Below are positions 4,697-54,318 of a stretch of 61,853 nucleotides of DNA, piece by piece. The notes beneath the pieces are model-generated. The model did no database searches. It was not told the origin of the DNA and was given only the letters and a program-made list of their open reading frames with translations. The position numbers and the translations under genes are program-made. Source of the stretch: Bacillota bacterium (GTDB lineage: Bacteria > Bacillota > Sulfobacillia > JACIYH01); assembly GCA_014360055.1 (NCBI GenBank), contig JACIYH010000004.1, positions 1 through 61,853 of the forward strand. The letters run 5' to 3'. How positions within the stretch are numbered: position 1 is the stretch's first letter; the number at the start of each line of letters is the position of its first letter.

Positions 4697-4698
4697 GG

Positions 4699-6354: not shown

Positions 6355-6374
6355 AAAGCCTGGGATAGCTCAGC

Positions 6375-7127: not shown

Positions 7128-7150
7128 GATAAACGGCAGGGGGGATTTAC

Positions 7151-7930
7151 ATGAGCGGTCGCTATTTCGGTGCGGACGGGTGTGCCGGTGGTTGGGCGCT
7201 GGTGGAGTTGGTTGACGGCAGGCCGGTCATGCACCTTTTCGTCGCGGAGTTCGCAGGTGTCCTCCAGCGCACCAGAGATGCCCGCCTCGTGCTCGTCGAC
7301 ATCCCCATCGGGTTAGCGGATGCAGCCCGCGGGGAGCGCCGGTGCGACGTGCTCGCCAGGAAAGTACTCGGGGACCGGGGGAGCTGCATTTTCCCGGCTC
7401 CTATCCGCGAGGTAGTGGATCTGCCCGAACGGTGTACTCAGGCGGAAGCCTCAGCGCGCCAGCGTCAGCTCACTGGGCGCGGGCTCACCATGCAGGCGTA
7501 CTGCCTGCTTCCGAAGATACGCGAAGTGGACAGCCTCATGCGGCAGAACCCCCGGCTGCAGGAGACCGTGCGGGAAAGCCACCCTGAACTCTGCTTCGCA
7601 GCCCTGAATGGCGGGAACCCTGTGGAGCGCGGCAAGCTGAGCCGGGAAGGACGCCGCGAGAGGCTCGCGGCGCTGAGTCGCTACGTCCCGGCCGTGGACG
7701 CGTTCATCGCTGGGGTGCCCCGGAGCAAGAGGCGGGGGAGTGCCGCCGCCGATGACGTGCTGGACGCCCTGGCCCTTGCCGTCAACGCCTGGCTCGGCAG
7801 CGAGCACGGCTTCCGAGTGCTGCCCGACGAGGGGGAGGAACTGGACCGGTACGGGCTGCGCATGGAGATGGTCACCGCCCGTCTGGATAGTGCCATCGCG
7901 GTCGGGGCGGCTGCCGCCACCCGTGGGTAG
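7151..7930 (+). CDS. DUF429-family protein (predicted RNase H-like nuclease fold)
   Basis: N-terminal YFGADGCAGGWALVEL followed by LVLVDIPIGL is typical of DUF429. It starts 24 nt after the NERD stop. Confidence 0.6.
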   Translation: MSGRYFGADGCAGGWALVELVDGRPVMHLFVAEFAGVLQRTRDARLVLVDIPIGLADAARGERRCDVLARKVLGDRGSCIFPAPIREVVDLPERCTQAEASARQRQLTGRGLTMQAYCLLPKIREVDSLMRQNPRLQETVRESHPELCFAALNGGNPVERGKLSREGRRERLAALSRYVPAVDAFIAGVPRSKRRGSAAADDVLDALALAVNAWLGSEHGFRVLPDEGEELDRYGLRMEMVTARLDSAIAVGAAAATRG

Positions 7931-20642: not shown

Positions 20643-20678
20643 GGGTGAGCAGTGCTCCATGAGGGGGGGCTGGGCCGC

Positions 20679-21572
20679 TTACCCCGGTTGGGTTCGAGGT
20701 CCCTGCGGTGGTTGAGGTCCTTGCGGTGGTTGAGGTCCCTGGGGCGGTTGAGGTCCTTGCGGTGGTTGAAGTCCTTGCGGCGGTTGCCGGGGTACCTGTG
20801 CCGGTTGTAACCCCCGTCCACGGCGGGCGGCTCGGATGTACTGGCGGCTCATATACGTGAGGTATCGGAGGATGGGGTCGTCTGGAGGGAGGTCGCGTAG
20901 AGGGAGGAGCCCGCGTACTTTCTCGGTCATGGTCTTAAAATTCAGGTCCTTCGCTGTAATGGTGATGAGGTGGATACCATGTTCCTGACAGAGCGCTTTC
21001 TTGATGTAGTCCCGGGCCATGGTCTCCCGGGCCCGGTCTGGATCAGGGAAGGCATCTGTCGGCCCGTAATGCTGGGGGCCGTTGAACTCGAAGGCCACGC
21101 GCTCTTTCAGGTAGTAGCGGTCGAACTCCAGGCAGGCGCCGGTGGCGGGATTGCGGATGGATCCCAGGCGGGCGTTGTTGTCGTACTCTGTGGACGCCAC
21201 TATGAGATCCAACCACTCCCGCATCAGGGCTTCTCCCTTGAAGCTGGCAGGCCCGAGGCGTGCCCGCACTTGGTTCAGTTCAGCATGGCGTTGTTCAAGG
21301 ATCGGGTTACGCAAGGTGAAGACGGTCTGACGGCCTGCCGCCCGCTCGAGTCGCAGCCATCCCGCCTGCTCCAGGGCCGCGACGCATTTACGCAGCGTAG
21401 CCGGGTCTACGCGGAGGGCCTGGGCCAACGCGGCCTGAGTCCCCCGCCATTGACGGGTCTGAGGTTCGCATTTCCCCAGAAGATAGATGTAGACGAACCT
21501 GGCCCCGATGGATAGCTCCGCGTTGACCAACTCAAGCGGCACGACGAGACCCGTCACTACTCCCACCTCCAT
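20679..21572 (-). CDS. wHTH + PD-(D/E)xK-like (DUF559/Vsr-like) nuclease-domain protein with a C-terminal (QPPQGP)5 repeat
   Basis: N-terminal wHTH (GTQAALAQALRVDPATLRKCVAALEQAGWLRL). Central CLEFDRYYLKERVAFEFNGPQHYG...ARDYIKKALCQEHGIHLITI resembles the D..(h)E.(D/N)G.QH endonuclease core. The 18-nt tandem repeats lie at about 20690-20790. ATG 21572 sits behind GGGGAGAAGG; ATG 21587 is an alternative. Confidence 0.5.
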   Translation of the reverse strand: MEVGVVTGLVVPLELVNAELSIGARFVYIYLLGKCEPQTRQWRGTQAALAQALRVDPATLRKCVAALEQAGWLRLERAAGRQTVFTLRNPILEQRHAELNQVRARLGPASFKGEALMREWLDLIVASTEYDNNARLGSIRNPATGACLEFDRYYLKERVAFEFNGPQHYGPTDAFPDPDRARETMARDYIKKALCQEHGIHLITITAKDLNFKTMTEKVRGLLPLRDLPPDDPILRYLTYMSRQYIRAARRGRGLQPAQVPRQPPQGLQPPQGPQPPQGPQPPQGPQPPQGPRTQPG

Positions 21573-21602
21573 GCGCCTTCTCCCCATTATTTGACACGTA
21601 CT

Positions 21603-22192
21603 CCAGTATTCTCCTGCAAACTGGCGTTTTGCCCGCTATCTCCGTCCTGCGAAAAGTGGTCGGGGTCGTTCGTCGGACGGGGCAGAGGCAATCAGGGAAA
21701 ATTTCGCTGCTTCTGTCCCGGGGATGGGACGAATTCTTCCGCTTATCGTTGGCGAGGGGCCGGTAGAGCAGGGCGGGCATCTGGGGAGAAGTGCCAAAAG
21801 GCTGCTGCCGTCGGGATTATGAGGTTACAAGTTCGACAACGAGATGCGTAGATGCATGGGTTGTCGACTTGTGCGCTGCAGAGGCGGGGTGGTTGGCGGG
21901 ACAAATGAGGGTGAGACCCCCCTCGGACAGGTGTTGGCACCGCAGAATGTGAATTCTTCGCAGCCACCCGGCGGGACAGAGGGCGAAGAAATCACTTCGA
22001 AGGGCGGCGCGCTGGTCGGTGTCAGGAGCCGGCGAGGGGCGGCGCGCTGGTCGGTGTCAGGAGCCGGCGAAGGGCGGCGCGCTGGTCAGTGTCAGGAGCC
22101 GGCGAGTTGCGGCGCTCTGGTCGGTGCCAGGGGAAGTAAGGCGGGGTGGGTGCGCCTGTAGCGGGAGCCCCGGGCGCCCGGGGCTGGGGTGG
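21603..22192 (+). repeat. left copy (about 590 nt) of a long imperfect inverted repeat
   Basis: Its reverse complement aligns by eye with 34105..34598. The core 21799-21893 differs at 1 position from the partner. Long hairpin at 21827-21872 (acaagt-t-cgacaac ... gttgtcgacttgt). Boundaries are approximate. Confidence 0.8.
22002..22131. repeat. 35-nt tandem repeat (about 3.6 copies) inside the left inverted-repeat copy
   Basis: The unit gggcggcgcgctggtcggtgtcaggagccggcgag starts at 22002, 22037 and 22072, with a degenerate copy at about 22107. The right copy carries only one unit. Confidence 0.8.
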
Positions 22193-23214
22193 CCGCGCGA
22201 TGGGAGGGTTCTGCGGGTAGGTCGTTGAAGTCGTTCGCAGGGGGGTGCGTTTTGCTCTGGGATCCGACGATTACGGATGTCTACCGGGCGCGGGCGGTGG
22301 TGAGCAGGTTCCTGCGTCCGACGCCGCTACTCAAGCCGGCCGCGCTCGGCGAAGCCCTGGGGTGCGAGGCCTGGCTCAAGTGTGAGAACCTGCAGCCCAT
22401 CGGCGCGTTCAAGGTCCGGGGTGGGCTGAACCTGGTGTCGCGGCTCACTGCGGAGGAGAGGGAACGCGGGGTGATCACCGCCTCGACGGGCAACCACGGG
22501 CAGTCCATCGCCTTCGCGGCGCGGGCGTTCGGGGTGAAGGCGGTGATCGCTGCTCCCGAGGGCGCCAACCCCTACAAGGTGGAGGCCATGCGGCGCCTGG
22601 GGGCGGAGGTGGTCCTGCGGGGGAAGGACTTCGACGAGGCGCGCGAGTGGGTGGAGGAGGAGGCGCAGCGCCGGGGGTACCGGTACGTGCACTCGATGAA
22701 CGAGCCCCTCCTCATCGCCGGGGTGGCGACTGCCTATTTGGAAATCCTGGAGGAAGTGCCCGACCTGGATTACATCATCGTGCCCATCGGGGGCGGCAGC
22801 GGGGCTTCCGGGGCCTGCATCGTGGCCAAGAGCCTTAATCCCGCCATCCGGGTGATCGGCGTGCAGGCCGAACGCGCACCGGCGGTCTACCAGTCGTGGA
22901 AGCAGGGGCGCCTCGTGGAGACGCCGGATTGTGATACCTTCGCCGAGGGGCTGGCCACGCGGGTGGCGTTTGAGTTGCCCTTCCGCATCCTTCGCCGTCA
23001 CCTCGACGACATGGTGCTGGTGTCGGAGGAGGAGATGAAGGCGGCCGTCGTCCTGCTCCTGGAGACGGCTCACCAGTTGGCCGAAGGGGCGGGGGCGGCG
23101 GCCACTGCGGCCGCGCTCAAGATGCGGGATCAACTGGCGGGTAAGAGAGTGGCGCTCGTGCTCTCCGGAGGGAACATCACCGTAGAGACGCTCCGCGGCA
23201 TCCTGTGCCGCTAA
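22189..23214 (+). CDS. threonine/serine dehydratase-family PLP enzyme
   Basis: PLP-lysine region ENLQPIGAFKVRGG, then ASTGNHGQSIAFAA and the Gly-rich loop PIGGGSGASG. The true start is probably TTG 22251, behind AGGGGGG. Confidence 0.8.
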   Translation: MAARWEGSAGRSLKSFAGGCVLLWDPTITDVYRARAVVSRFLRPTPLLKPAALGEALGCEAWLKCENLQPIGAFKVRGGLNLVSRLTAEERERGVITASTGNHGQSIAFAARAFGVKAVIAAPEGANPYKVEAMRRLGAEVVLRGKDFDEAREWVEEEAQRRGYRYVHSMNEPLLIAGVATAYLEILEEVPDLDYIIVPIGGGSGASGACIVAKSLNPAIRVIGVQAERAPAVYQSWKQGRLVETPDCDTFAEGLATRVAFELPFRILRRHLDDMVLVSEEEMKAAVVLLLETAHQLAEGAGAAATAAALKMRDQLAGKRVALVLSGGNITVETLRGILCR

Positions 23215-23266
23215 GGCTGCATGAGTTATGGACCGCCCCAGGCCCGGTCGTGAGGTGTGGCGGGTA

Positions 23267-24127
23267 TCAGTGGCGGCGCGGCGGGGTGTGCGCCGGGCAG
23301 CGGGCGACCAGGCCCCGGGATTGCAGCTGGTTGAGGGCGTTGGTGACGAGGAAGGCGGGGATGGGCAGGGCGCGGCAGATGTGCTGCTCTGAGGCGGCAC
23401 CGGCCAGTTGCAGGTAGTGGAGGACGACTTCCTCGGTGGCGCGGGAGCGGGCCAGGGATGCCGCCGCCGCCACCGCCGCGGGAAACCGGCGGGCGAAGGT
23501 GTCCCACACGTACGTGTATCGGCGCGGTCCCTCGGGCCGGGTGCCCGCCGGGACCAGGAGCATGGCCGTCTGTAGCTCCGTCAGGGCGCGGTCGAGGGTG
23601 GTCCGGCTCACGGCGAAGTGCCGCCCGAGTTCGATGGTGGAGGTCGGGCCTGACGCGGCGATCCGCTCGTAGATGGTGCAGGCGAAGGCCCCTATACGGG
23701 CCTCCTCGCGCGCGTTCAGGCAGTCGTCCTCGTCGCCCAGATTCCCTACCATGGCGTAAAAACGGGGCAACATCTGCGACGAGACGTACGTGGGCTTCCG
23801 TTGCACGAGCTTGGCGTAATAGAGCCGACCGGACTCGAGGAAGGAGTCCTTCCAGGTCCAGGCCCAGTCCCAGCGGGTGTCTTCGTCATCCGTGGGGAGC
23901 AGTTCGAAAAGGGCGGGCACGGCTGCCACGGGGAAGGGGTGGTCCGGTGGTTCGGGGGTGAAGGCGTGGCAGAAGCCGAGTTGATCCACCAGGCGCAGGA
24001 CCTGCTCCGGTCCCGACACGCGGGGGCCTTCCCTCCGCCTGAGCCGCAGTGCTGCCGCCTGCCACACGGTCCTGTCACCTGGCGCACTGCGTATCGCAGA
24101 GCCGGCAATGCCTGTCCAGTACCACAT
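23267..24127 (-). CDS. multi-winged-helix protein (possibly AlkZ/YcaQ-like)
   Basis: Two wHTH-like segments: IYERIAASGPTSTIELGRHFAVSRTTLDRALTELQ and LHYLQLAGAASEQHICRALPIPAFLVTNALNQLQSRGLV. I chose the start at ATG 24127 to avoid the Pro-rich N-terminal filler that overlaps the DUF3795 gene. The family call is tentative. Confidence 0.4.
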   Translation of the reverse strand: MWYWTGIAGSAIRSAPGDRTVWQAAALRLRRREGPRVSGPEQVLRLVDQLGFCHAFTPEPPDHPFPVAAVPALFELLPTDDEDTRWDWAWTWKDSFLESGRLYYAKLVQRKPTYVSSQMLPRFYAMVGNLGDEDDCLNAREEARIGAFACTIYERIAASGPTSTIELGRHFAVSRTTLDRALTELQTAMLLVPAGTRPEGPRRYTYVWDTFARRFPAAVAAAASLARSRATEEVVLHYLQLAGAASEQHICRALPIPAFLVTNALNQLQSRGLVARCPAHTPPRRH

Positions 24128-24335
24128 CACATAGAGGATAGCAGAACGGTTGTGCCGCCGCCACCATACGAGCGGGATGGGCGGGGCGGGTCCGACGCGG
24201 GGGGCACGGACGGGGCGGGGACACAGGGGGGCCGTTCTGCCGGGCGCATCTCCCGGGAAGGAGGCTGACATGGTGAGTGGCGAAGACCTGAGCAGACGTT
24301 CTGCGGGCGAAGGGAATCCGCCAGGAGGTGGTGTA

Positions 24336-24683
24336 ATGGACAGGTCGATGGTGGCGCCGTGCGGGCTGGATTGTGCCGTCTGCGACATTTACCTGGTGCA
24401 GACGGATCACGAAGTGAGGCGGCGGATGATCCGGTGGTTCCGCGAACACCGGGGTATCGAAGTGCGGGAAGAGGACATGCGTTGCGATGGCTGCCGCGGG
24501 GACCGCGCCAGGCACTGGTCCCCCGACTGCTGGATACTGAAGTGCTGCGTGGACGGGCGGCGCCTGGAGTACTGCAGCCAGTGCGGAGAGTTCGCCTGCT
24601 CGCGGCTGCAGGAATGGGCGGCCAGGCACGAGGACTACGGTCGTGCCCTGGCGCGCCTCAAGGGTATGGTGGAGAGCACCTGA
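24336..24683 (+). CDS. DUF3795-like Cys-rich protein
   Basis: MDRSMVAPCGLDCAVCDIY...CDGCRG...CWILKCC...YCSQCGEFAC. Strong RBS AGGAGGTG 6 nt upstream of ATG 24336. Confidence 0.65.
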   Translation: MDRSMVAPCGLDCAVCDIYLVQTDHEVRRRMIRWFREHRGIEVREEDMRCDGCRGDRARHWSPDCWILKCCVDGRRLEYCSQCGEFACSRLQEWAARHEDYGRALARLKGMVEST

Positions 24684-24765
24684 AGGCCCGGTCACCGCTC
24701 GAGGCGTGGACCCGGGTGGCTAGTTCGAACTGCACATTGAGGGGGCCGGTGCCTGAAAGGCGTGC

Positions 24766-25821
24766 TCAGGTGGCCACGAGCGTGCACCACTCCAGGGTGG
24801 TTTCCGCCACGGGAAGGGCGTCGATCCCGAACTCCGGGAGCAGTACGCTCCGGGGGGTGGGAAGCGCCCGGGCCCGGCGGACGTTGACGACCTCCACTCG
24901 CCATCCGGATCTTTCGAACAGGTCCAGGGCTTTGTCGCGGAAGAGAAAAGCGTCCAGGCCATGAGTCTCGATGGCATCCCGGTTAACGCGATCCTCCGGC
25001 GGGTAGAAACAGGAGATGGCGTAGAAAGTGCCGGATGTGATGCGCCTGAGTTCCCGCAGCAGATCGCCGGGGTGCTCGATGTTGGCGAGCCCGGCGAAGG
25101 TGGTCAGCGTACTGATGCTGCCGTCCCGGAAAGGGGTACGCCGGGCGTCGAAGGCGAGCAGGCTCACCCGGTCATACAGCCCCACCAACTCCAGGTAGCG
25201 GCGGTTGCGGCGGAGGACACGGAGACTGAAGTCACTGGCCACGATGGGACGGTCGAGGTGGCGGGCGAGCCTCTCCACCAGGCCGCATCGCCCCGATGCC
25301 AGGTCGACCACCGGGCGGTCGGCGGCAGGCCCACCGTGGCCGGCAGGCCCGCCGTGGGCGGCGGCAGCCCCACCGTGGCCGGCGAGGCGGTCGCACAGGT
25401 ACTTCATCTGGCTGTCTACCGCGGCATTGTACTCCTCGGTGTACAGTCTCGGTCCCGCCTGCGCCTCCAGGGCGGCCGCCGCTGCGTAATCGCCCCGCTC
25501 CTCGAGGGCCATGGCGCGGAAAAAGCGATCCGCGGCCGCGAGGGTCCCGGGGTCTGAGTTGAGCAGCCGGTCCTCGATGTCGGGGTGGGCGCGCAGGTAC
25601 CGGCTCAGGCCGCTTTCCACCTGCTCCCAGAGGTCGTGTCGGGTCAGGTCGGGTGTCAGGAAGACCCCGATGCCTTCCCGCACAGGGTATTGGGCCCCGC
25701 AGTCCGGGCAGCGGATGTCGGCCCGTTCGATGTGATCTCCGTGCGCTTCCTCGATGGTGAAGCGGAGATCATTCCGACAGGCGGGGCACTGAAGCATTTC
25801 CAGCAGATAGCGGTGCATCAT
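24766..25821 (-). CDS. Trm112-like zinc-ribbon fused to a class I SAM-dependent methyltransferase
   Basis: N-terminus LLEMLQCPACRNDL...IRCPDCGAQYPVREGIGVF (Trm112-type ribbon). Then VVDLASGRCG (motif I) and ..LLAFDARRTPF.. . ATG 25821 sits behind AAGGAGG and overlaps the upstream stop by 4 nt. Confidence 0.7.
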   Translation of the reverse strand: MMHRYLLEMLQCPACRNDLRFTIEEAHGDHIERADIRCPDCGAQYPVREGIGVFLTPDLTRHDLWEQVESGLSRYLRAHPDIEDRLLNSDPGTLAAADRFFRAMALEERGDYAAAAALEAQAGPRLYTEEYNAAVDSQMKYLCDRLAGHGGAAAAHGGPAGHGGPAADRPVVDLASGRCGLVERLARHLDRPIVASDFSLRVLRRNRRYLELVGLYDRVSLLAFDARRTPFRDGSISTLTTFAGLANIEHPGDLLRELRRITSGTFYAISCFYPPEDRVNRDAIETHGLDAFLFRDKALDLFERSGWRVEVVNVRRARALPTPRSVLLPEFGIDALPVAETTLEWCTLVAT

Positions 25822-26600
25822 TGAAGCCTCCTTTGCGGGTCCTGGGTTGGCTGGGACGGGCCGGGGGGAGTGAACAGGAAGCGGATGTCGCGCAGGCGCG
25901 AGCGCGGGCAGGCATCCTGGCAGGCGCGGCACATGATGTGGCTGCCCGCGGTGAGGCGGGGCTCGTGCCGCGCCACCACTTCCGGCGGCGGCATCCTGCC
26001 CGGCCCGCCCAGGGTGAGTCCCACCAGGCACTTCTCATCGTCCACCCGGAAGGGCTCCAGTGCCCCCACCGGGCAGGCTTCCACACAGGCCGAGCAGTTC
26101 CCGCAGAGGTCCCCCTCCCAGGGGTGATCGGGGGGAAGCACGGCGTCGGTGAGGATGCCCTCCAGGCGGAGGTCGGGTCCGCAGTCGGGGGTGATGAGCA
26201 GGGAGTTCTTGCCGAAAGTGCCCAGACCGGTGAGGCGGGCGAGGTTCTTGAGGGAGATGGCATCGGGGGTAAGGACCGCGCGGTGGCCGCGGGCGACGAG
26301 GAGGTTACACACCTCGCGCGCCCTCATGGCCACCGTACCGTATCCGGGATAACGCCACCCACCGCCCGGCAGCCGCACCGCCAGGTCCTCTGCCGGATCG
26401 CGGATCTGGGCCGCGACCACGATGGCCGTTCGCGCCCCCGGCAGCACCTCGGCGGGGCGGCGGGTGGGCTGGCGGATGATCCAGCCCACATGGATGCCGG
26501 CATACTGCTCCATATCCTCTGCCCGGGCGAACCCCACGCGGAAGCCGCGCCGTTGGGCCAGTTCCCGGATCTCGCCTGCTAGATCGTCCTGCCCTGGCAC
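25818..26600 (-). CDS. 4Fe-4S protein of the epoxyqueuosine-reductase (QueG)/reductive-dehalogenase-like type
   Basis: TGLGTFGKNSLLITPDCGPDLRLEGILTD...CGNCSACVEACPVGA, plus a second Cys cluster MCRACQDACP. GTG start. Confidence 0.55.
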   Translation of the reverse strand: MPGQDDLAGEIRELAQRRGFRVGFARAEDMEQYAGIHVGWIIRQPTRRPAEVLPGARTAIVVAAQIRDPAEDLAVRLPGGGWRYPGYGTVAMRAREVCNLLVARGHRAVLTPDAISLKNLARLTGLGTFGKNSLLITPDCGPDLRLEGILTDAVLPPDHPWEGDLCGNCSACVEACPVGALEPFRVDDEKCLVGLTLGGPGRMPPPEVVARHEPRLTAGSHIMCRACQDACPRSRLRDIRFLFTPPGPSQPTQDPQRRLQ

Positions 26601-26757
26601 GGCTTTCCCCCCATCCCGCCCATGCCCCCTGTGCCCCTCTTTCCCGCCCGCGAGCCGGCCCCGGGCCCCCGGACGGTGAGCCTGCGGACCCCCCCCTCAG
26701 AGCGGGTGCACGCAAGAGTACGGCCCCCGGAATAACGGCGCCAGCGTCAAGGTGTGG

Positions 26758-28587
26758 TCAGGGAGCAATGCCGGTGGCCCGGGTGCGGCGGGGGCTGTGT
26801 CCGGGGACGCGCAGCTTGCGGTAGAGGCTGGCGCGGCTGATCCCCAACTCGCGGGCGGCCTGGTCCACGGCACCGCTTCCTGAACCGTACCGGGCCAGGC
26901 ACGCCCTGATCAGTGAAGCCTCGAACCGCCGGACCTGGTCGCGCAGCGTACCGCCGCCAGCGGGCAATCCGCGGTGACGGAGGCGGGGCGGCAGGTCCTC
27001 CACCGAAATGGTGGGACCCCTGGTAAGGTGCGCGGCGTACTCGACCGCGTTCTGCAACTCGCGCACGTTGCCGGGCCATTCGTAGGCCAGAAAAGTCTCC
27101 AGCACCGCCCGGCTGAACCCGCTCACTTCTTTGGGCACCACCCGGCGCTGGCTGTCCAGGAAGTACTCCGCCAGCAGCGGGATGTCCTCGCGGCGCTCCC
27201 GCAGCGGCGGGATGTGCAGGGGGATGACGCTCAGGCGGAAATAGAGGTCCTCGCGGAACTCGTGGTCACGCATCATCTGCTCCAGGTCCCGGTTGCTGGC
27301 GGCGATCACGCGCACGTCCACCGGCAGTGGGCGCGTGCCGCCGACCCGTTCGACCACGTGGTCCTGGAGCACGCGCAGGAGCTTCACCTGCAGGTGCAGC
27401 GGCAGGTCCCCGATCTCGTCGAGGAAGACGGTGCCGCCGCTCGCCATCTCGAACTTGCCCGGCTTGCCCTCCCGCCGGGCCCCCGTGAAGGCGCCTCCCT
27501 CGTAGCCAAACAGCTCGCTCTCCAGGAGGGTCTCGGGGATGGCGCCGCAGTTGATCACCACGAAAGGACCGGCCGCCCGCGGGCTGGCGGCGTGGATGGC
27601 GCGGGCGAACATCTCCTTGCCGGTACCGCTCTCCCCGCAGATGAGGACGGTGACGTCACTCGCCGCCACCTGCATGGCCTGCTCCTTCACCCGCAAGAGG
27701 GCGGGACTGGTACCCTTGATGTCGGCAAAGGTGTATCCCGGGCGGGTGTCGGTCATGCTGCGCACCAGCCGGCGTACGTCGGAAAAGGCGCGGAAGGTCG
27801 CCACCACGCCTTTGACCGCACCCTCCACGCGCACGGGCAGCGCCGTAACCAGGAAGTGGGCGGGACGCGGGTGTTGGTACATTTCCTCCCGTTCCCGGTA
27901 CCCGCGGCCGGTGGCGAGTACCGTGAGCATGGGGGAGTCATGCCAGAGGGTGGAGAGGTGCCTTCCCACCAGTTCCCGCCGCGGCAGGCCGATGAGGACC
28001 TCGGCCGCCCGGTTGCAGTGGGAGATAAATCCCTCCTCGTCGATGGCCAGCACGCCCTCCCCGATACTCTCCAGGATGGTGGCCAGCTGGCCCGAGGTAA
28101 CGCTCAGGCGGGTCATGGCGTGGTGCTCCCTAACTTTGCTGGCCAGGAGTTCCGCCATGCGATGGAGGAATTCCAGCATCTCCCGCTGCTTGGTGAGCAG
28201 GAACTCGCGCTGCCCCGGCGTCATGGCCGTGAGTCCCATTACCCCCGCCACCCGGCCGTCCACGACCACGGGGCAGCAGATCTCGGCCTGCTCGTCGATT
28301 TCCCCGGTGATGGAGCGGGGGTCGTAGGTGGGGTCCGAGGCGGGATCTTCAACCACGAAGGACTGTCCGGTGCGGAGGACCCGGCCGTATAGAAAGCCGG
28401 CCGCCGGGTCGCCGCCCTCCTCCTTGGTACCGATGCGCTGGCGGTACTTGCCGGTGCCGGCCACTATGGTGAGCCGGTCGTCCACGATCTCCGTTTCCAC
28501 ACCCAGGGCGGCGGAAATGGCTTCCGCCACCTGCTGGACGGTATCCTGTATGGACATCAAATCGGAAACGGACAAGCCCCCTCGCAC
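26758..28587 (-). CDS. sigma-54-dependent transcriptional activator (GAF-PAS-AAA+-Fis HTH)
   Basis: AAA+ Walker A GESGTGKE, the GAFTGA loop (ESELFGYEGGAFTGA), and C-terminal HTH AARELGISRASLYRKL. N-terminal sensory domains. The start is uncertain (GTG 28587 or ATG 28557). Confidence 0.85.
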   Translation of the reverse strand: MRGGLSVSDLMSIQDTVQQVAEAISAALGVETEIVDDRLTIVAGTGKYRQRIGTKEEGGDPAAGFLYGRVLRTGQSFVVEDPASDPTYDPRSITGEIDEQAEICCPVVVDGRVAGVMGLTAMTPGQREFLLTKQREMLEFLHRMAELLASKVREHHAMTRLSVTSGQLATILESIGEGVLAIDEEGFISHCNRAAEVLIGLPRRELVGRHLSTLWHDSPMLTVLATGRGYREREEMYQHPRPAHFLVTALPVRVEGAVKGVVATFRAFSDVRRLVRSMTDTRPGYTFADIKGTSPALLRVKEQAMQVAASDVTVLICGESGTGKEMFARAIHAASPRAAGPFVVINCGAIPETLLESELFGYEGGAFTGARREGKPGKFEMASGGTVFLDEIGDLPLHLQVKLLRVLQDHVVERVGGTRPLPVDVRVIAASNRDLEQMMRDHEFREDLYFRLSVIPLHIPPLRERREDIPLLAEYFLDSQRRVVPKEVSGFSRAVLETFLAYEWPGNVRELQNAVEYAAHLTRGPTISVEDLPPRLRHRGLPAGGGTLRDQVRRFEASLIRACLARYGSGSGAVDQAARELGISRASLYRKLRVPGHSPRRTRATGIAP

Positions 28588-28678
28588 CCCCCATTTGGCG
28601 GCAAATCGCGTACTTACTTCGCCCCTGTGCCCATTTGCTCCTGCTCTCTGGGGGCCGAGTGGCGCGCACCCCCAGGGC

Positions 28679-30685
28679 TCAGACGGTGGCGTGGGCGGGC
28701 GAGAGGGGGCTCAGCCACTTGTGGGCTTCGGCGATGGAGTAGGCGGCCAGGGCGCCCTCCTGGGCGGCCTCCATGATGCGGCGCGGCCGTACGGCGTCCC
28801 CTATCACGTAGACCTCACCCACGCGGCCGGCCAGGTCCAGCGCCAGGTCGTTGACCGGGGTGGCCCCCACGGCCAGCACCACGGCGTCGGCGGGGAAGGA
28901 CGCCGTCTGCAGGTGGCGATCGATGGTGCGGACGGTGCTGTCGGTGATGCTGGTGGCGGTCACGCCGGTGAGGCCGTTGATGCCCAGGCGCTTGAAGCGC
29001 CCCAGCATGTCCAGCCGGTTGATGGGCTCCATGTCCAGGGCCAGGTCCTGGAGCATCTCCAGGATGGTCACCTGCTTGCCCCGCTCGGCCAGGAACTCTG
29101 CCGTTTCGCATCCCACCTGGCCACCTCCGATGATCACCACCCGCTGACCGTCCACCTGCTTCGTGCCGGCCAGCACGTCCCACGCCTGGAAGACGCGGGG
29201 ACCGTCCACGCCCGGGATGTCGGGGACGGCCGGCACCGCGCCCGTGGCGACGATGACCGCCGCCGGCTGCTCGCGCAGGACGTCCTCCGCGGAGACGTTG
29301 CGACCGGTGAACACGCGCACCCGGAAGAGGGCCAGTTCCCGGGTGAGGAAATCGGTGAACCAGTTGATCTTGTCCTTATGGGGTGGCAGGGCGGCGAGGA
29401 GCATCTGCCCGCCCAGCCGGTCCGACTTCTCGAAGAGGACCACATCGTGACCGCGCATGGCGGCGATGCGGGCCGCCTCCATGCCGGCGGGACCGCCTCC
29501 TACCACCACCACCTTCACGCGGTGGGGGGCGGGCGGGATGGTGCCCAGCAGCTCCTCCATACCCACGGCCGGGTTGACGGTGCAGCGCATGATGCTGGAG
29601 GCGAAGATGCCGTTGCCCACGCAGCCGATGTTGCAGCTGATGCAGCGGTTGATGCGGTCGGCATGCCCGGTGGCCGCCTTCAGGGCGAACTCGGCATCGG
29701 TGATGTGACCGCGTCCCACCGCCACGAAGTCGGCCTTGCCTTCGGCGATGATGCGGTCGGCCATCTCGGGGGTGCGGATGACGCCCACGGTGATCACCGG
29801 GATGGTCACCGCCTGCTTGATGGCCTCTGCCAGGTAGACGCGCCATCCCTCGGGGTAGGACATGGGCTCGAGGACGCGGTCCATGCTTTCGTAGATGCCG
29901 GCGGAGACGTGCAGGACGTCCACCCCCGCCTGCTGGAGCCGGGCGGCGATCTGCCTGGCTTCCTCCAGGGTGAGACCTCCGGGGATGAACTCGTCGGCGC
30001 TGAAGCGGAAGCCAATGATGAAGTCGTCCCCCACTTTCTCCCGCGTGCGCCGGATGATCTCGAGGGGGAAGCGAAGGCGCGCCTCCAGCGTCCCGCCGTA
30101 CTGGTCCACGCGCCGGTTGGTGTAGGGTGACATGAACTGGCCGATCAGGTAACCATGCGCCCCGTGCAGTTCGATGCCGTCGAAGCCGGCCAGTTTGGCG
30201 CGGGCGGCGGCTTCCGCGAACTTGTTGATGAGGGTGTCGATCTCTTCGCCGGTGAGTTCGCGCGGTTGCACACCCAGGAACCGGCAGGGCACCGGGGATG
30301 GCGCCACCGGCACACGCCCCTCGGTGATGGCGGGGGTGGTCTGTCTTCCGGCGTGGTGGATCTGCTGCAGGGCCACGGCGCCGTGGCGCTTGATGGCGGT
30401 GGCCAGCAGGCGCAGGCCGGGGACGAACTTATCGTTGTCGATGCGGTGCTGGCGGACCACGTTCTTGCCGGTGGGGTAGTCCACCTGGGCATTCTCCACG
30501 ATGATGACGCCCGTGCCGCCCTTGGCCCGCTCCTCGTAGTAGCGGATCATGCGGTCGGTGACCTCGCCGTCCTCGCCACCGTAGTTGGTGGCCATGGGCG
30601 GCATGACCAGGCGGTTGCGCGCGGTGACCTTACCGATACGGCCCGGTTGAAACAGACTGGGATAGTGATTGGTCGGCACTGACAC
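28679..30685 (-). CDS. two-domain NADH:flavin (OYE-like) / FAD-NAD(P) oxidoreductase (2,4-dienoyl-CoA/enoate reductase type)
   Basis: N-terminal OYE signature LVMPPMATNY...QIHHAGRQ...ELHGAHGYLIGQF. Cys cluster CISCNIGC. Two dinucleotide folds (VVVVGGGPAGMEAA, VVIIGGGQVGCE). Confidence 0.8.
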   Translation of the reverse strand: MSVPTNHYPSLFQPGRIGKVTARNRLVMPPMATNYGGEDGEVTDRMIRYYEERAKGGTGVIIVENAQVDYPTGKNVVRQHRIDNDKFVPGLRLLATAIKRHGAVALQQIHHAGRQTTPAITEGRVPVAPSPVPCRFLGVQPRELTGEEIDTLINKFAEAAARAKLAGFDGIELHGAHGYLIGQFMSPYTNRRVDQYGGTLEARLRFPLEIIRRTREKVGDDFIIGFRFSADEFIPGGLTLEEARQIAARLQQAGVDVLHVSAGIYESMDRVLEPMSYPEGWRVYLAEAIKQAVTIPVITVGVIRTPEMADRIIAEGKADFVAVGRGHITDAEFALKAATGHADRINRCISCNIGCVGNGIFASSIMRCTVNPAVGMEELLGTIPPAPHRVKVVVVGGGPAGMEAARIAAMRGHDVVLFEKSDRLGGQMLLAALPPHKDKINWFTDFLTRELALFRVRVFTGRNVSAEDVLREQPAAVIVATGAVPAVPDIPGVDGPRVFQAWDVLAGTKQVDGQRVVIIGGGQVGCETAEFLAERGKQVTILEMLQDLALDMEPINRLDMLGRFKRLGINGLTGVTATSITDSTVRTIDRHLQTASFPADAVVLAVGATPVNDLALDLAGRVGEVYVIGDAVRPRRIMEAAQEGALAAYSIAEAHKWLSPLSPAHATV

Positions 30686-30790
30686 TCCCTCCCCGCAGGC
30701 GCTGGCATTCTCTTCAGTATTGGTGTCCCGCGGAGGAGTGCCTCATGCCTGCCCCACGGCTGGTGCGTGGAGCAGTACCTCATGCGTGCC

Positions 30791-32050
30791 TCACGCCTGG
30801 TGAGGACCCCCGGGAGAGCTGCCCGTCGTCCTGCAGGGGAGAGGGACAACGGTGGCGCCCGCGTTGGGGCCGGCGGCGGGGGCGGCGTGGCGGGTCACCA
30901 GGACCCGCATGGCCACGAACATGACGGCTGCCGTGGCGCCCGCCAGGAGGAACGGCGCCAGTTCCATCCTCTGGCGCAGGTAGCCCGCCAGGGGCACGGC
31001 CAGGGCGGCCGCCAGGCTGCTCGCCGTACCGATGGCTCCCAGCGCCCGACCACGGATAGTCTCGGGGAGGGCGACCACCCGGAACGCGTCACTCGCCACC
31101 ATGGAAAACTGGAAGGCCGCAGACATAGCCAGCATACCGGCCATGATGGCCGCTGGATGCCTCTGCAAGGCCCAGAGCAGCACGGAACCACCCAGGCCCA
31201 GGGTTGCCCAGGAGAACACCCGGTAGACCCCCCAGCGGGCCACCGCCCGGCCGGCCAGCAGGCTGGACAGCGCCGAGACGGCCGACCCGGCGGCGTAGAA
31301 CAGGTTGATCTGGGACTTGCTCAGCCCCATGGCGTCGCTGGCGTGCAGGGCGAGGAACGGTCCCCACATGGTGGTACTCAGGACCAGGTAGTACGCCACC
31401 GAGATGAGCAGCACCACCGCCAGCCGCCCCGAGAACACGTGCGTGAACTGGAAGTGTTCGGAGCCCGCCGTGGCCGGTCGGGTTTCCCGCAGCAGTACCT
31501 GGCGGGCTACGGCTGTGCACACACAGGTGACACCGGTGATCAGGAGTAACCCCCTGGCTCGCACGAGGGGAAGCAGGTAAGCCCCCAGCAGCGGACCCGC
31601 CACCACGCCCACTCCGATGGTGAACTCGACCAGGCCGAAGGCGTGGCCATGGCGCTCCGGTGGAACGGCCTCGCCAATTATGGTGGAGAAGGTGGGTCCC
31701 TGAATGGCGTTGGCCACGTACCACAGGACGTATACCAGCACAAACGGCTGCCACGAGGGCATGAAGGCGGCCGCTGAGATGGCCGCTCCGGCGAGGTAGG
31801 TGGGATACAGGAGGGTGGGGCGACGGCCGAAGCGGTCGCTCCAGATACCTCCGCGGTACTGGAACAGCGCAGCCACGGCCGTCCAGGTGGCGACGGAAAG
31901 GCTGACCTGGAAGTCCGATGCCCCCAGGTCACGCAGGATGAGCGGAAGGATAGGACTCCACATCGTCATGGCCCCCACGTTGAGAGCACACGTGACGGCC
32001 ATGACGGGCACGTTTCTGGCTGCGGGCCACGGTCCGGTTGCCTGCTGCAC
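30791..32050 (-). CDS. MFS transporter
   Basis: About 12 hydrophobic segments and the loop motif GGIWSDRFGRRP. Confidence 0.75.
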   Translation of the reverse strand: MQQATGPWPAARNVPVMAVTCALNVGAMTMWSPILPLILRDLGASDFQVSLSVATWTAVAALFQYRGGIWSDRFGRRPTLLYPTYLAGAAISAAAFMPSWQPFVLVYVLWYVANAIQGPTFSTIIGEAVPPERHGHAFGLVEFTIGVGVVAGPLLGAYLLPLVRARGLLLITGVTCVCTAVARQVLLRETRPATAGSEHFQFTHVFSGRLAVVLLISVAYYLVLSTTMWGPFLALHASDAMGLSKSQINLFYAAGSAVSALSSLLAGRAVARWGVYRVFSWATLGLGGSVLLWALQRHPAAIMAGMLAMSAAFQFSMVASDAFRVVALPETIRGRALGAIGTASSLAAALAVPLAGYLRQRMELAPFLLAGATAAVMFVAMRVLVTRHAAPAAGPNAGATVVPLPCRTTGSSPGGPHQA

Positions 32051-32118
32051 GCCTACACGTTCGCGCCCGCCACATCACTTCCCTTCCGCCCTGTCCCACA
32101 CCCGTACCGGAGGCGGAT

Positions 32119-32297
32119 CACCTGGGGCGCGACATCCTGTCGCGCATCATCTACGGCTCCGCATATCCCTCGCCGTGGGGTTGATGTCCGAGTTCATCGT
32201 TACCGTCATCGGGGTCACGGTGGGCCTTCTGGCCGGATACTGCGGCGGCTGGTTCGACAGCCTGGTGATGCTCGTGTGCGACATCCTCTTTGCTTCC
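32119..32297 (+). pseudogene. fragment of an Opp/Dpp-type ABC permease (OppC/DppC-like), frameshifted
   Basis: HLGRDILSRIIYGS, then after a 1-nt frame break ISLAVGLMSEFIVTVIGVTVGLLAGYCGGWFDSLVMLVCDILFAS. This matches the conserved OppC core (LGRD..SR..yG.R.SL..G...G...GyfGG..D...M). There is no N- or C-terminal remainder. Confidence 0.6.
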
Positions 32298-32375
32298 AGC
32301 CTGGTGATGCGTGTGTGCGACATCCTCTTTGCTTCCAGCCTGGTGATGCGTGTGTGCGACATCCTCTTTGCTTCC
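32259..32375. repeat. 39-nt tandem triplication of the end of the oppC fragment
   Basis: The unit agcctggtgatgcgtgtgtgcgacatcctctttgcttcc starts at 32259, 32298 and 32337. Confidence 0.85.
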
Positions 32376-32399
32376 GCGACCTGCTCTTCTGCATCGGGA

Positions 32400-32915
32400 T
32401 CATATTTGCCAGAACGCCGGCAGCAGGCTGCGGGCCGCCACCGTGCCCCCCACCAGGGCGCCGATGGCGCAACCGGCGTTGACCGCCACGCGCAGGAGAC
32501 CGTAGGCTTCCATCCGCTGCCCGCCGGGTGTGACGTCGGCGACCACCGCATGGGCGGCAGGCAGGAACAGGGGGCTTCCCAGGCCGTGCACCATGGCGAG
32601 CAGCGACACGTAACGCAGGTCGCGGGCGAGGGCCAGGCCTACCAGGGCCAGGCTTTGCAGGCCCAGTCCGGCGAGCATGACGGGGCGGCGGCCCCGGGTA
32701 TCGGCGAGGTACCCTGACAGCAGCTGGCCTGCTATCCCTGCTGCGCCGTTGAGCGTGAGCATCAGCCCGGCCACCAGCGGCGTGGCCCCCAGGCGGCCGG
32801 TGGTGTACATGGAAAAGAAGGGCCAGATGGCGAAGTAGCCGATGCTGCTGACCAGCTCGCCCCAAACGAGTATCCACACGCGCCGATCGAACCGTTTGCC
32901 CATCGTATTTCGCAC
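32400..32915 (-). pseudogene. MFS transporter, N-terminal half only
   Basis: 171 aa with an MFS N-domain (GYLADTRGRRP loop). It stops abruptly beside the oppC fragment and repeats. Full-length MFS proteins are about 400 aa. Confidence 0.55.
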
Positions 32916-32918
32916 TAT

Positions 32919-33066
32919 CAGGCTGCGGGTTTGTCGCTGCTGGGGCTTACCTGCCAGGTGGCTGCGGGTTTGTCGCCGCTGGGGCCTGCCTGCCGGGTGG
33001 CTGCGGGTTTGTCGCCGCTGAGCCCTGCCTGCCAGGTGGCTGGGGGTTTCGCCGGGCTGCCTCCCA
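32919..33066. repeat. 39-nt tandem repeat (about 3.7 copies)
   Basis: The unit ctgcgggtttgtcgc(t/c)gctggggc(t/c)t(a/g)cctgcc(a/g)ggtgg starts at 32922, 32961 and 33000, with a degenerate copy at about 33039. It lies directly upstream of the truncated MFS gene. Confidence 0.8.
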
Positions 33067-33228
33067 GTCTCAGGGGCCGCCCGGCGTAAAAATGTTCGAT
33101 AGGGGATACCGGCGTTCCTGCCGGTGAGGCGGCGGGTGGGCCGGTACGGTGCGCTTCTTCATAAAACCTTCACGGTTGGTGGTTACTATAACGGCAGGAT
33201 CGGGAGCGGCAGAAGGAGGTTGATTGGT

Positions 33229-33999
33229 TTGCGTAAGTGGATGTGGGTGTTGGCCGGCGCCCTCGTGCTGGTGCTCGCGGCATCCCCGGTGCTGGCCGCC
33301 GGGATGGGTGGCGCTCGCCTGCGCGCCCGTGACGGGGCCGGCCTGGGCCAGTTGCGGCTGCAACTGCGCGACGCCACCTGTGCGGAACTGGGCGTGACTC
33401 CCGAGCAGTTCCAGCAGGCCAGGCAGCGCGCGGCCATCAAGGTGGTAGACCAGTTGCAGGCACAGGGTAAGATCACCGCGCAGCAGGCCGAGCGCATTCG
33501 CCAGCGCATCGAGCAGGGCGACTTCGGTCGCGGCATGGGCCGGCCGGCTGACGGTCCGCGTCAGGGCATGGGCCCGGGCACACGCGGGCCGGGCATCCGC
33601 CTGCAGGCCGGACGGCTGGCGCTGGACGAACTGGCCGGGTTCCTGGGCATCAGCACCGAGGACTTCTGGGCGGCCCTGCGCAGCGGTAAGTCCGTCGCCC
33701 AGGTGGCCGAGGAGCGGGGCAAGACGCGCCAGGAAGTGATCGATTTCCTGACCGCCAGGGTCAAGGAGCGCCTGGATGAGGCGGTGGCGGCCGACAAGAT
33801 CACGCAGGAGAGGGCCGACCAGGTGATGGCTGCCTTCCAGGCTCACCTGCCCCAACTGCTGGACTACGTGCGGGATTGCTCCAACTGTCCCTGCGGCGCC
33901 CCCGGCACCGGTGGCGGCCGTGGCGGCCGGTGGCAGCGGGGTGGCCAGGGTCCGCAAGCGCCTCAGGCACCCGCGGCCCCTCAGTCCAGCGGCCTCTGA
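33229..33999 (+). CDS. secreted helical-repeat protein (DUF2680/YckD-like?)
   Basis: Signal peptide WMWVLAGALVLVLAASPVLAAG. Repeated ..ITAQQAERIRQRIEQ.. / ..ITQERADQVMAAFQ.. segments. Gly/Gln/Pro-rich tail. RBS AGGAGG at 33214-33219; the start is TTG 33229 or ATG 33241. Confidence 0.45.
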   Translation: MRKWMWVLAGALVLVLAASPVLAAGMGGARLRARDGAGLGQLRLQLRDATCAELGVTPEQFQQARQRAAIKVVDQLQAQGKITAQQAERIRQRIEQGDFGRGMGRPADGPRQGMGPGTRGPGIRLQAGRLALDELAGFLGISTEDFWAALRSGKSVAQVAEERGKTRQEVIDFLTARVKERLDEAVAADKITQERADQVMAAFQAHLPQLLDYVRDCSNCPCGAPGTGGGRGGRWQRGGQGPQAPQAPAAPQSSGL

Positions 34000-34104
34000 C
34001 AGCGTGCAGGCCGTAGAGCCGGCCTGTGATGCGTGGAATCACTTGGGAGGGGACATCCCGACGGGGGGGTGTCCCCTCCGGCTTGGTTACCGGATGTGCG
34101 CGCA

Positions 34105-34598
34105 CCCCCGACCACCCCAACCCCAGGTGCCCGGGGCTCCCGCCACAGGCGTACCCGCCTCGCCTTCCCCTGGCACCGACCAGAGCGCCGCCCTTGGAAG
34201 TGATTTTCTCGCCCTCTGTCCCGCCAAGTAGCTGCGAAAAATTCACCTTCTGCGGTGCCAACACCTGTCCGATGGGGGGTCTTCCCCCCATTTGACCCGG
34301 CAACTACCCCGCCTCTGCAGCGCACAAGTCGACAACCCATGCATCTACGCGTCTCGTTGTCGAACTTGTAACCTCATAATCCCGACGGCAGCAGCCTCTT
34401 GATGCTCCCCCCCGCCTGCCCGCCCCGCTTTACCCGCCCTTCACCAAAGATAAGCGGAAAAACTCGTCCCATCGCCCGGACGGAAGCAGCGAAATTTTCC
34501 CTGATTGCCCGTGCCCCGCCCGACGAACGGCCCGGACCACCTTTTTCGCAGGACGGAGGTGCCCCGCAAAAGACCAGTCAGCAGGAGACTACTGGGGC
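34105..34598 (-). repeat. right copy (about 495 nt) of the long imperfect inverted repeat
   Basis: Reverse-complement partner of 21603..22192. It has the same core and hairpin (about 34322-34367). Boundaries are approximate. Confidence 0.8.
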
Positions 34599-34649
34599 GT
34601 GTGCTGAATAGTGCCGGAGCAGGCTGGGCCTTGACCCGGGCCTGAAGAC

Positions 34650-36413: not shown

Positions 36414-36540
36414 GGCGAACCCGTTGACCGATGCAACACCCTGGGCGGACACGGGCGCCGGGCAGGAGCCGTCTGCTGAAGGTGCAACGGGGGGAAGCTG
36501 CAGCCGCGTCTCAATTGTGGCATCCGTATCTCATCTATGA

Positions 36541-36561
36541 AACACCCGCGAGTGGGGTGTT
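36541..36561. promoter_or_regulatory. inverted repeat AACACCC-N7-GGGTGTT, a possible activator (UAS) site
   Basis: Perfect 7-bp arms read from the sequence. Its centre lies about 80 nt upstream of the sigma-54 -24 element. Function is inferred. Confidence 0.3.
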
Positions 36562-36626
36562 CGAGAGGCACCGGACCAATGGGCCGTTTTTCGCGGGTTT
36601 CGGCGAGCCAGAGCGCCGGACAATCC

Positions 36627-36642
36627 TGGCATGGATCTTGCA
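36627..36642 (+). promoter_or_regulatory. sigma-54 (-24/-12) promoter
   Basis: cCTGGCATGgatcTTGCAc against the consensus YTGGCACGrNNNTTGCW. GG and GC have the canonical spacing. It lies about 50 nt upstream of RBS AAGGGAGG plus GTG 36691. Confidence 0.65.
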
Positions 36643-36690
36643 CTGGTAACTGGTTGGAACCAGGCGAAACGCAAGAAGGGAGGCCAGAGC

Positions 36691-38286: not shown

Positions 38287-38388
38287 GGTGGTCCCGGCGC
38301 GCACTGCGTCGCGGCGGGCGAACCCTGAGTGGCCCGAGAGCGAGGCGGAAGGTCAGAGAGGGGCGCAGACCAGTGTGAGGAGGGATGT

Positions 38389-51674: not shown

Positions 51675-51693
51675 GGAGTTTGGGGGGAGCATC

Positions 51694-53181: not shown

Positions 53182-53182
53182 G

Positions 53183-54304: not shown

Positions 54305-54318
54305 TGTAGCAGAACTGG

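Follow-up and report, generated by a model that had tools for sequence, protein, structure and literature searches.

Free-standing homing endonucleases, for which the seg and mob genes of phage T4 and the Vsr-like EDxHD family with I-Bth0305I serve as described examples (PMC3239194, PMC2677866), are small intergenic cassettes in which a DNA-binding module is joined to a Vsr-type nuclease. Other described systems are built around inverted repeats: invertons such as fim and hin use repeats of 10-40 bp around segments of up to a few kilobases, often of a few hundred base pairs, next to a tyrosine or serine recombinase, and longer inverted copies such as rrn operons or insertion sequences (ISs) serve as substrates for inversion by RecA. 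Here we analyse a 61,853-nucleotide (nt) stretch of a Bacillota bacterium (NCBI GenBank assembly GCA_014360055.1, contig JACIYH010000004.1, positions 1 to 61,853; hereafter the window, G+C 66.9%) which carries an inverted repeat of about 0.5 kb whose two arms lie 12 kb apart. We conclude that the arms are probably two copies of a ~0.5-kb non-coding module, the upstream region of a selfish-looking nuclease cassette, and that the inverted repeat goes back to an old duplication of an ordinary kind, with no sign of acting as a switch; it is not to be presented as an invertible element. What gives the locus its value is the small, fast-evolving cassette, made up of a putative nuclease gene and a module that appears to be copied on its own.

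The window, to which our coverage of the source genome is confined and which holds two module copies, was compared with contigs L001-L003, L006-L008 and L090-L095, plus further loci of the gene family. Of these, L092 (GCA_030018155.1) and L093 (GCA_030024035.1) are NCBI contigs of metagenome-assembled genomes (MAGs) about 96% identical to the window, L006 (SRR16588181) and L095 are Logan contigs, and L094 (JGI 3300005860) comes from a more distant relative whose amidohydrolase is 79% identical. Domains were scanned in 30 of the roughly 45 candidate open reading frames (ORFs) of the window, about two-thirds of them, with those of 49427-61851 outside the scan.

A non-coding module in two copies

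The inverted repeat was recovered alike by repeat finding, MAFFT and BLASTN. In a global alignment of 21603-22195 (+) with 34598-34109 (-), 423 of 484 aligned positions match (87.4% identity), and the alignment is interrupted by indels at three points (2, 1 and 109 nt), the longest of which arises because the left arm has surplus 35-nt tandem units. The repeat finder returns the segments 21652-21922/34274-34544 (271 nt, 88%), 21917-22037/34158-34278 and 22138-22195/34109-34166, and weaker homology widens both arms to approximately the outer limits given in Table 1. Between these limits lies a 92-nt core with a single mismatch, against 60 mismatches in the remaining 392 nt (Fisher p = 3e-5), and the longest perfect runs between the arms are 46 and 45 nt. 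The original prediction had aligned 21603-22192 by eye with the reverse complement of 34105-34598, and had put the identity of the flanks at 80-90%, the core at ~95 nt with one difference and the excess on the left at two or three 35-nt units; measurement bears it out, the excess being 109 nt or about three units. The concern that the similarity might be merely low-complexity, GC-rich sequence can be set aside, since the arms are not of low complexity and a 21-mer from the core occurs twice in the 61.9-kb window, where 0 occurrences are expected by chance. With each arm as a BLASTN query, no third copy was found in the window.

In near-identical strains, the Logan contigs L001, L002 and L095 break off within the arms, some at the 35-nt units and others at the core. 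These contig ends are independent evidence that the genomes of those strains also carry the repeat, and they show how it breaks up assemblies; L095 begins inside the core, at the equivalent of window position 34362, as expected for a core that is repeated in that genome.

The arms are non-coding, because indels interrupt every ORF common to both. Two ORFs cross the core (21844-22161 on the plus strand and 33981-34340 on the minus strand, of 105 and 119 amino acids (aa)), sharing a frame for 24 codons only before a 1-nt indel, and a small protein encoded by the arms was rejected on account of the indels of 1 and 2 nt, which break each shared frame. No tRNA or tmRNA is present. A sigma-54 promoter of the form TGGCAC-N5-TTGC, or an enhancer, was considered and rejected, as the TGGCAC of the arms has the wrong spacing to a -12 element and the sole perfect match lies at 36343-36357, and searches of the arms for sigma-70 promoters and terminators gave nothing above shuffled expectation.

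What the core does contain is a hairpin (Table 1), in which 87% of the cells are paired, compared with 22-41% when the partners are slid against each other. Compensatory changes occur at two pairs, although the covariation score is reached by 59 of 500 column shuffles and so does not exceed its control. The G-T(U) cells are distributed unevenly, 11 on the strand that is sense for the adjacent winged helix-turn-helix (wHTH) gene and 1 on the opposite strand. This bias points to a single-stranded form, RNA or DNA, of the outward-facing strand, on which the hairpin would be read as a portion of a leader RNA or as single-stranded DNA. One might go further and regard the arms as a structured non-coding RNA in two copies, with the 92-nt core as a small RNA or a riboswitch-like leader; the conserved hairpin, its two compensatory pairs, the G-U bias of 11 to 1 and the conservation of the core above its flanks would all suit such a gene. 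Several observations speak against it and make it improbable. No Rfam family matches the arms at the gathering score, with only noise (eukaryotic long non-coding RNA) appearing at E <= 10, and whole-arm folds are marginally better than those of shuffled sequence (z ~ -1.9 and -1.8 for the two strands). The covariation lies within its shuffling control, conservation of the core falls to ~65% in L006, with no core at all in L008, L003 and relatives further away, and L092 carries a change that breaks the stem.

The second recurrent element of the module is an 11-nt motif of the type GCGAARAWTTC. The window has nine matches to it, of which seven are located in the arms against an expectation of 1.5, and each module has four such sites, arranged as two pairs ~125 nt either side of the hairpin. 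At two of the sites, G..GAA.AA is invariant in all seven related upstream regions (the two arms, L006, L007, L090, L008 and L091). Close to the start of the wHTH gene there is also a -10-like element, GGCAGGAGAAT…TGTCAAAT, whose version in L008 reads TATATAAT.

A discrete cassette and a probable solo copy of its module

The left arm adjoins the start codon of the wHTH gene (20679-21587), and the order nitroreductase, wHTH gene, spacer, PALP (threonine-dehydratase-like) gene, the last starting at 22253 inward of the arm, is also found in L006, L090 and L008. The nitroreductase gene (to ~20640) and the PALP gene (from ~22200) are 96-100% identical between the window and L006, whereas everything in between (20643 to ~22200) is only 50-88% identical, and the encoded wHTH proteins share 76% of their residues. 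On the PALP side the switch in identity, at ~22200, coincides with the inner end of the left arm, and the same CGCGC opens both versions of the cassette, as well as the right arm, at the inner end. Still more diverged versions occupy the locus in L090 and L008, and L003 retains an L008-type spacer with the first 94 nt of the gene only, which implies that loss of the gene need not take the spacer with it. At a different locus, beside a homologue of the window gene 8041-9210, L007 has a 71%-identical gene with a recognisable upstream core; at yet another, L091 has a 55%-identical gene without the core, beside an enoate-reductase-like gene. From these alignments the gene and the left arm together are a discrete, fast-evolving cassette, for which patterns of presence and absence and allelic divergence are seen.

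In L091 (1335-4286) the family gene lies directly upstream of an enoate reductase with the domain architecture of window gene 28679-30685. This adjacency may be a coincidence or a recurrent association.

The right arm has a different history. It stands in the same place and orientation in L092 and L093, 95% identical over 700 nt, and it is missing from L094, in which a 250-aa gene is followed directly by the amidohydrolase gene and the unaligned spacer is ~506 nt shorter. As this shortfall matches the size of the right arm, L094 presents an empty site, which the flank alignment gives as GCTTG-TGCCGG-TGGGCGGGCCTT. On either side of the arm in the window stand TTACCGGA and TGCCGGA, which we regard as suggestive only of a target duplication of 6-7 bp. 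A three-way comparison dates the event: at 86 sites the left arm differs from a base common to the window and L092 right arms, whereas private changes number 14 in L092 and 9 in the right arm of the window. The age of the duplication is therefore several times that of the split between these two genomes. The polarity of the right arm towards the amidohydrolase gene is that of the left arm towards the wHTH gene, and a weak similarity continues for ~13 nt beyond the point that corresponds to the start codon (ATGGGGAGAAGGC versus GTGCCGGAGCAGGC). On this comparative evidence we take the right arm to be an old secondary copy that has no gene. The suggestion in the original prediction that the repeats mark an old insertion or duplication is thus upheld, as the window has the arm in common with assemblies ~4% diverged from it, and L094 is without it.

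It could be argued that a second complete cassette once stood upstream of the amidohydrolase gene and that its gene was lost later. L003, which has lost the gene and kept the module, provides a precedent, and the ~13 nt of similarity beyond the start codon position might be the last trace of such a gene. We nevertheless think this unlikely: both flanks of the module align with the empty site of L094, with TnCCGGA on either side and no 3' end of a cassette, and the size difference of ~506 nt is that of the module alone.

The neighbourhood of the right arm has also been remodelled in other ways. The amidohydrolase/symporter arrangement is common to the window, L092 and L094, and the lineage of L003 and L008 has no amidohydrolase or symporter genes, and its 252-aa gene is turned round with respect to the aminotransferase gene (L003:16911-18190 versus window 33154-34084 and 34095-38374). 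There is thus a local rearrangement at the site of the right arm in L003 and L008 compared with the window, L092 and L094.

The nuclease-like gene, its family and a proposed mechanism

The protein encoded next to the left arm has 302 aa. Pfam returns only weak wHTH matches for it; HTH_36 matches 36 of the 37 family members scanned, and DUF2726 stays below the cut-off, with E = 0.16 for the window protein and matches in 10 of the 37 members, the best at 0.014. A survey of PD-(D/E)XK proteins sorted DUF2726 together with Vsr and DUF559, in a group that contains the intron homing endonuclease structure 3r3p (PMC3424549). Among the PHROG families, residues 118-224 match phrog_9084 'homing endonuclease' (E = 2e-12) as well as phrog_559 and phrog_7140 'intron encoded nuclease', and the N-terminal domain matches 'replication initiation protein' families; PADLOC found nothing meaningful in this protein. 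AF2 gave confident models, with a pLDDT of 88.6 for the complete protein and of 91.2 for the C-terminal domain modelled separately. All Foldseek matches of that domain are weak (E > 1e-3), and the best fold similarity is to PD-(D/E)XK nucleases, namely PvuRts1I, AbaSI, the R2 restriction-like endonuclease, TnsA and Vsr (TM 0.52). Invariant across the family are G118, E119, D156, R157, Y159, E167, G170, Q172, H173, T177, D193, K196 and D214, and the E-F-N-G-x-Q-H block resembles the E-x-D-G-x-x-H block of DUF559/Vsr-like nucleases. Taken together, the matches and the models make it likely, though not proven, that the protein is a fusion of a wHTH domain with a Vsr-type nuclease, akin to a homing endonuclease.

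The family to which it belongs is small, with 78 matches at E <= 1e-3. When one genome per GTDB species is considered, 116 family loci are found in Limnochordia, Symbiobacteriaceae, Thermaerobacter, Fermentithermobacillaceae and related MAGs. Of the best 80 loci, at least 27, belonging to three subfamilies, come from a single long-read Limnochordia MAG, JBMNJG01 (loci L067-L088, for example L067:1713-3558; further family loci are L022-L035, L049-L055, L059, L061 and L089). Copies of one of these subfamilies are ~90% identical, with a 361-aa ORF that is intact in 11 of the 13 copies checked, and a non-coding array with 1.5-6 tandem units of 406 nt stands ahead of each. The downstream sequences of the JBMNJG01 copies are themselves repeated, in about three classes. 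In other subfamilies and genomes, tandem repeats of 84, 93, 210 or 270 nt or direct repeats of 330 nt lie beside the gene, and none of the repeats associated with the family has an Rfam match. Judged across these loci, a gene accompanied by duplicated non-coding sequence of medium size is a trait of the family, and the inverted solo copy of the window is one variant of it. NCBI names some members 'ArsR family transcriptional regulator' and others 'hypothetical', no specific Pfam or NCBIfam model covers the family, and literature searches on the family or on Limnochordia repeats returned nothing specific; the cassette family thus appears uncharacterised.

The names given at NCBI lead to a different account, which overlaps in part with the one we favour. 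The wHTH protein would be a transcription factor and the module its operator and promoter, so that the right copy added the amidohydrolase and SSF transporter genes to a regulon, with no mobility involved. The common polarity of the two arms towards the genes that follow them, the repeated conserved motifs and the -10-like element near the gene start are what such an account would lead one to expect. It is harder to reconcile with the invariant acidic, His and Lys residues of the C-terminal domain and its matches to families annotated as homing endonucleases. At least 27 copies in one genome beside non-coding repeats would be atypical for a regulator, and the cassette is hypervariable between near-identical strains. 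We consider regulatory duplication possible, if somewhat doubtful, as a full explanation.

We return to the reading of the arms as a nuclease cassette's module and its solo copy. The cassette gene would encode a winged-helix domain fused to a Vsr/DUF559-type PD-(D/E)XK nuclease, with the left arm as its native upstream region, and the winged-helix domain would bind the GCGAARAWTTC sites. The right arm would have been inserted between the 256-aa gene and the amidohydrolase gene, probably with a short target duplication. This could have happened by a transposition-like insertion, by break repair templated on the native module or by loss of the gene from a second cassette; the first is favoured because of the possible target duplication. 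The inverted arrangement would then be incidental, a consequence of the place and manner in which the second copy was inserted. As for the near-identity of the 92-nt core, a gene-conversion tract, or a fit of both copies to the same protein, explains it better than universal purifying selection. The solo copy may also supply promoter or operator sequences to the amidohydrolase and transporter genes. The repeat and its non-coding character, the limits of the cassette, its distribution and that of the right arm over relatives, the single orientation in three assemblies and the multi-copy, repeat-associated family are shown here; nuclease activity, motif binding, the transcribed strand and the mechanism of copying are inferred.

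A number of observations weigh against this reading. No enrichment of the GCGAARAWTTC motif is found near distant family members, and the idea of a family-wide motif was rejected on that ground. A covariance model of the core and hairpin, run over 620 kb of family loci, recovered only the input sequences and the truncated right-arm copy at the start of L095. This restriction of both core and motif to close relatives implies that the module evolves quickly, and on present comparisons it is lineage-specific. The core has no exact match in GTDB representative genomes, JGI metagenomes (two patterns) or IMG/VR and no BLASTN match in plasmids or phages, so that only the two copies within the 62-kb window are visible. 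The possible target duplication consists of few bases and is imperfect, and L094, the source of the empty site, is diverged by at least 13%; nor do the ends of the module, TGTGCGCGCAC... and ...GTGTGCTGAATAG, form a convincing terminal inverted match. In the core of the L092 right arm there are 3 private changes, and a stem pair is lost to one of them; the solo copy thus seems free of any obviously strong constraint and may be decaying rather than functional. The nuclease assignment, finally, rests on PHROG annotation, a sub-threshold Pfam match and weak fold matches, the protein has no sequence match in the PDB, and a plain role as a transcription factor is compatible with the data.

If the observations from the wider family are brought together, one may speculate that the wHTH and Vsr-type nuclease protein acts on its own 0.1-0.6-kb module and thereby copies or amplifies it, which would make the cassettes an undescribed class of selfish elements in high-GC Bacillota (Limnochordia, Symbiobacteriaceae, Thermaerobacter). 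We put this forward tentatively and regard it as doubtful. If it were true, the outcomes of this activity would include solo copies as in the window, flanking direct repeats, and 406-nt tandem arrays beside dozens of gene copies as in JBMNJG01, and the inverted repeat of the window would be one footprint among them.

In-frame 18-nt tandem units at 20665-20786 encode the PQGPQP tail of the wHTH-nuclease protein, and 36-nt units at 34757-34864 duplicate 12 residues near the N-terminus of the amidohydrolase, where the second unit has diverged in L092. The genome seems to be prone to tandem duplication.

The intervening segment and described systems

The original prediction saw the arms as brackets around a ~12-kb unit, and the genes it listed there are borne out by Pfam: PALP, an AlkZ-related wHTH protein, DUF3795, Trm112 with a methyltransferase, a 4Fe-4S protein, a sigma-54 activator, an OYE/enoate reductase and an MFS transporter. 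The unit itself does not stand up. The stretch from the PALP to the methyltransferase gene is syntenic with L003 and L008, both of which are without the right arm, whereas the block of Fe-S protein, sigma-54 activator, enoate reductase and MFS genes is found in L001 and L092 and is absent from L003 and L008; by synteny the interior is a patchwork and is not present or absent as a whole. The left junction keeps the gene order seen in L006, L090 and L008, and the neighbours of the right junction are those of L094. With ancestral order at both junctions and no other orientation among the assemblies, the 12 kb were neither inserted nor visibly inverted, and on the same evidence they are an ordinary part of the chromosome that has kept its ancestral orientation. 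Nor is the whole 13 kb flanked by a duplication.

The 'decayed corner' noted earlier within the segment is real and is a 2.2-kb deletion relative to the 96%-identical L092, with its junction at window 32177|32409. An NlpC/P60 gene and the greater part of a second MFS gene, both intact in L092, have been lost through it, and an N-terminal fragment of the latter remains at 32409-32909 (-). Two arrays of 39-nt tandem repeats lie in or beside the scar, at 32258-32375 and 32921-33049.

These data bear directly on the proposal that RecA recombines the arms, that the 12 kb exist in two orientations and that the leaders facing the flanking genes are thereby swapped. RecA processing needs a minimum of ~25 nt, which the perfect runs of 46 and 45 nt exceed, and a core far more alike than its flanks fits an occasional exchange between the arms. 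On the other hand, a divergence of 13% strongly depresses homologous recombination, and given the barriers set by mismatch repair, inversion between arms of 87% identity with perfect runs of only 46 and 45 nt is possible and expected to be rare. The window, L092 and L093 show one orientation; the arms of the window and of L092 are non-chimeric, the 86 sites at which the right arms agree against the left lying on both sides of the core; GC skew is >= 0 throughout the segment, with no reversal; and both junctions keep their ancestral neighbours. We accordingly judge an invertible segment to be improbable, and the expectation of two orientations found no support in the three assemblies.

The remark that no recombinase is visible was right in part. 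No transposase or integrase domain, and no adjacent site-specific recombinase domain that might serve inversion, was detected in the 30 ORFs scanned, which cover about two-thirds of the candidates and none of 49427-61851; the nuclease-like gene adjacent to the left arm was overlooked. A composite transposon or IS-bounded island, which inverted repeats of ~0.5 kb around accessory-looking genes might bring to mind and which the original prediction had already thought not obvious, is barely credible: the arms are non-coding and too short for ISs, the scan of these 30 ORFs revealed no transposase or integrase, the interior is syntenic in relatives lacking one arm, and the whole 13 kb has no flanking duplication.

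The window contains further features of note. The GAF-PAS sigma-54 activator, whose gene lies inside the segment at 26758-28587, probably acts on the perfect sigma-54 promoter in Table 1. A cluster resembling a defence island occupies 1401-7930 and consists of a HerA/DUF87 helicase, a DNA methylase fragment, a NERD nuclease-related protein and DUF429. For the exact sequence of the window enoate reductase no record was found.

Table 1. Coordinates and properties of the repeat arms, the cassette and neighbouring features
Feature	Position	Strand	Description
Left arm	21588-22203	-	Non-coding module ahead of the wHTH-nuclease gene, proposed as the native copy; homology with the right arm is firm over 21603-22195
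Right arm	34095-34611	+	Gene-less 517-nt module copy upstream of the amidohydrolase gene
Left core	21799-21890	-	92 nt, 1 mismatch to the right core
Right core	34306-34397	+	Counterpart of the left core
Hairpin, left arm	21827-21872	-	13-bp stem with one bulge, plus 4-bp apical stem
Hairpin, right arm	34324-34369	+	Same structure as the left hairpin
35-nt tandem units	21998-22131	.	Repeat family D2; left arm has ~3 units more than right arm
GCGAARAWTTC-type sites, left arm	21697-21707, 21731-21742, 21951-21961, 21983-21993	-, -, -, +	Motif match
GCGAARAWTTC-type sites, right arm	34202-34212, 34234-34244, 34454-34465, 34489-34499	-, +, +, +	Motif match
wHTH + Vsr/DUF559-like nuclease gene	20679-21587	-	302 aa, PQGPQP repeat tail; alternative start ATG 21572
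Possible target-site duplication, left copy	34087-34094	+	TTACCGGA
Possible target-site duplication, right copy	34612-34618	+	TGCCGGA
L094-type empty spacer			GCTTGTGCCGGTGGG
256-aa-type gene	33124-33999	+	Converges on the inner end of the right arm
Terminator hairpin of the 33124-33999 gene	34045-34079		Faced by the right arm
Amidohydrolase (Amidohydro_3)	34710-36413	+	ORF opens at 34650, likely start near 34710; downstream of the right arm
Perfect sigma-54 promoter	36343-36357	+	TGGCACGCTTGTTGC; at the end of the amidohydrolase gene and ahead of the genes for a sodium:solute symporter and a putrescine-type aminotransferase

How, then, does the locus relate to what has been described? With invertons it shares inverted repeats that flank a segment and none of the features by which they work, neither the short repeats, nor the small segment, nor the adjacent recombinase. 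With RecA inversion repeats it shares two inverted copies, here 12 kb apart, with a near-identical stretch of 92 nt; these arms differ in being 87% identical, in a single orientation in three assemblies and non-chimeric. Iteron-type replication or partition regions with wHTH initiators come to mind because of the HTH_36 and 'replication initiation protein' matches and the 11-nt motifs around a hairpin, but the locus is chromosomal, has no other replicon genes, has about four irregularly spaced motifs per module and encodes a nuclease-like fusion.

Miniature inverted-repeat transposable elements (MITEs) and other solo non-autonomous IS derivatives provide a parallel for the right arm, which is a 517-nt non-coding copy of part of a gene-bearing element, inserted in a spacer with a possible 6-7-bp duplication and matched by an empty site in a relative. 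It differs from them in that it has no clear terminal inverted repeats and only two copies are seen; its partner gene is not a recognised transposase, and the part that was copied is one side of the cassette, not both of its ends.

A further parallel is with the free-standing homing endonucleases. Common to both are the small intergenic cassette with a DNA-binding module and a putative Vsr-type nuclease, presence or absence together with strong allelic divergence at one locus among near-identical strains, and the PHROG matches to 'homing endonuclease' and 'intron encoded nuclease'. The window cassette departs from them in lying outside any intron or intein and in residing on a bacterial chromosome rather than in a phage. 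Its 0.5-kb module is able to exist without the gene, and members of the family are multi-copy beside tandem repeats of 84-406 nt. The motif E-F-N-G-x-Q-H stands in place of EDxHD, without a sequence match in the PDB. If the nuclease does drive the copying of its module, these cassettes would be a bacterial chromosomal counterpart to the free-standing homing endonucleases of phages, and their activity would explain assembly breaks and local rearrangements in the poorly studied thermophilic Bacillota.

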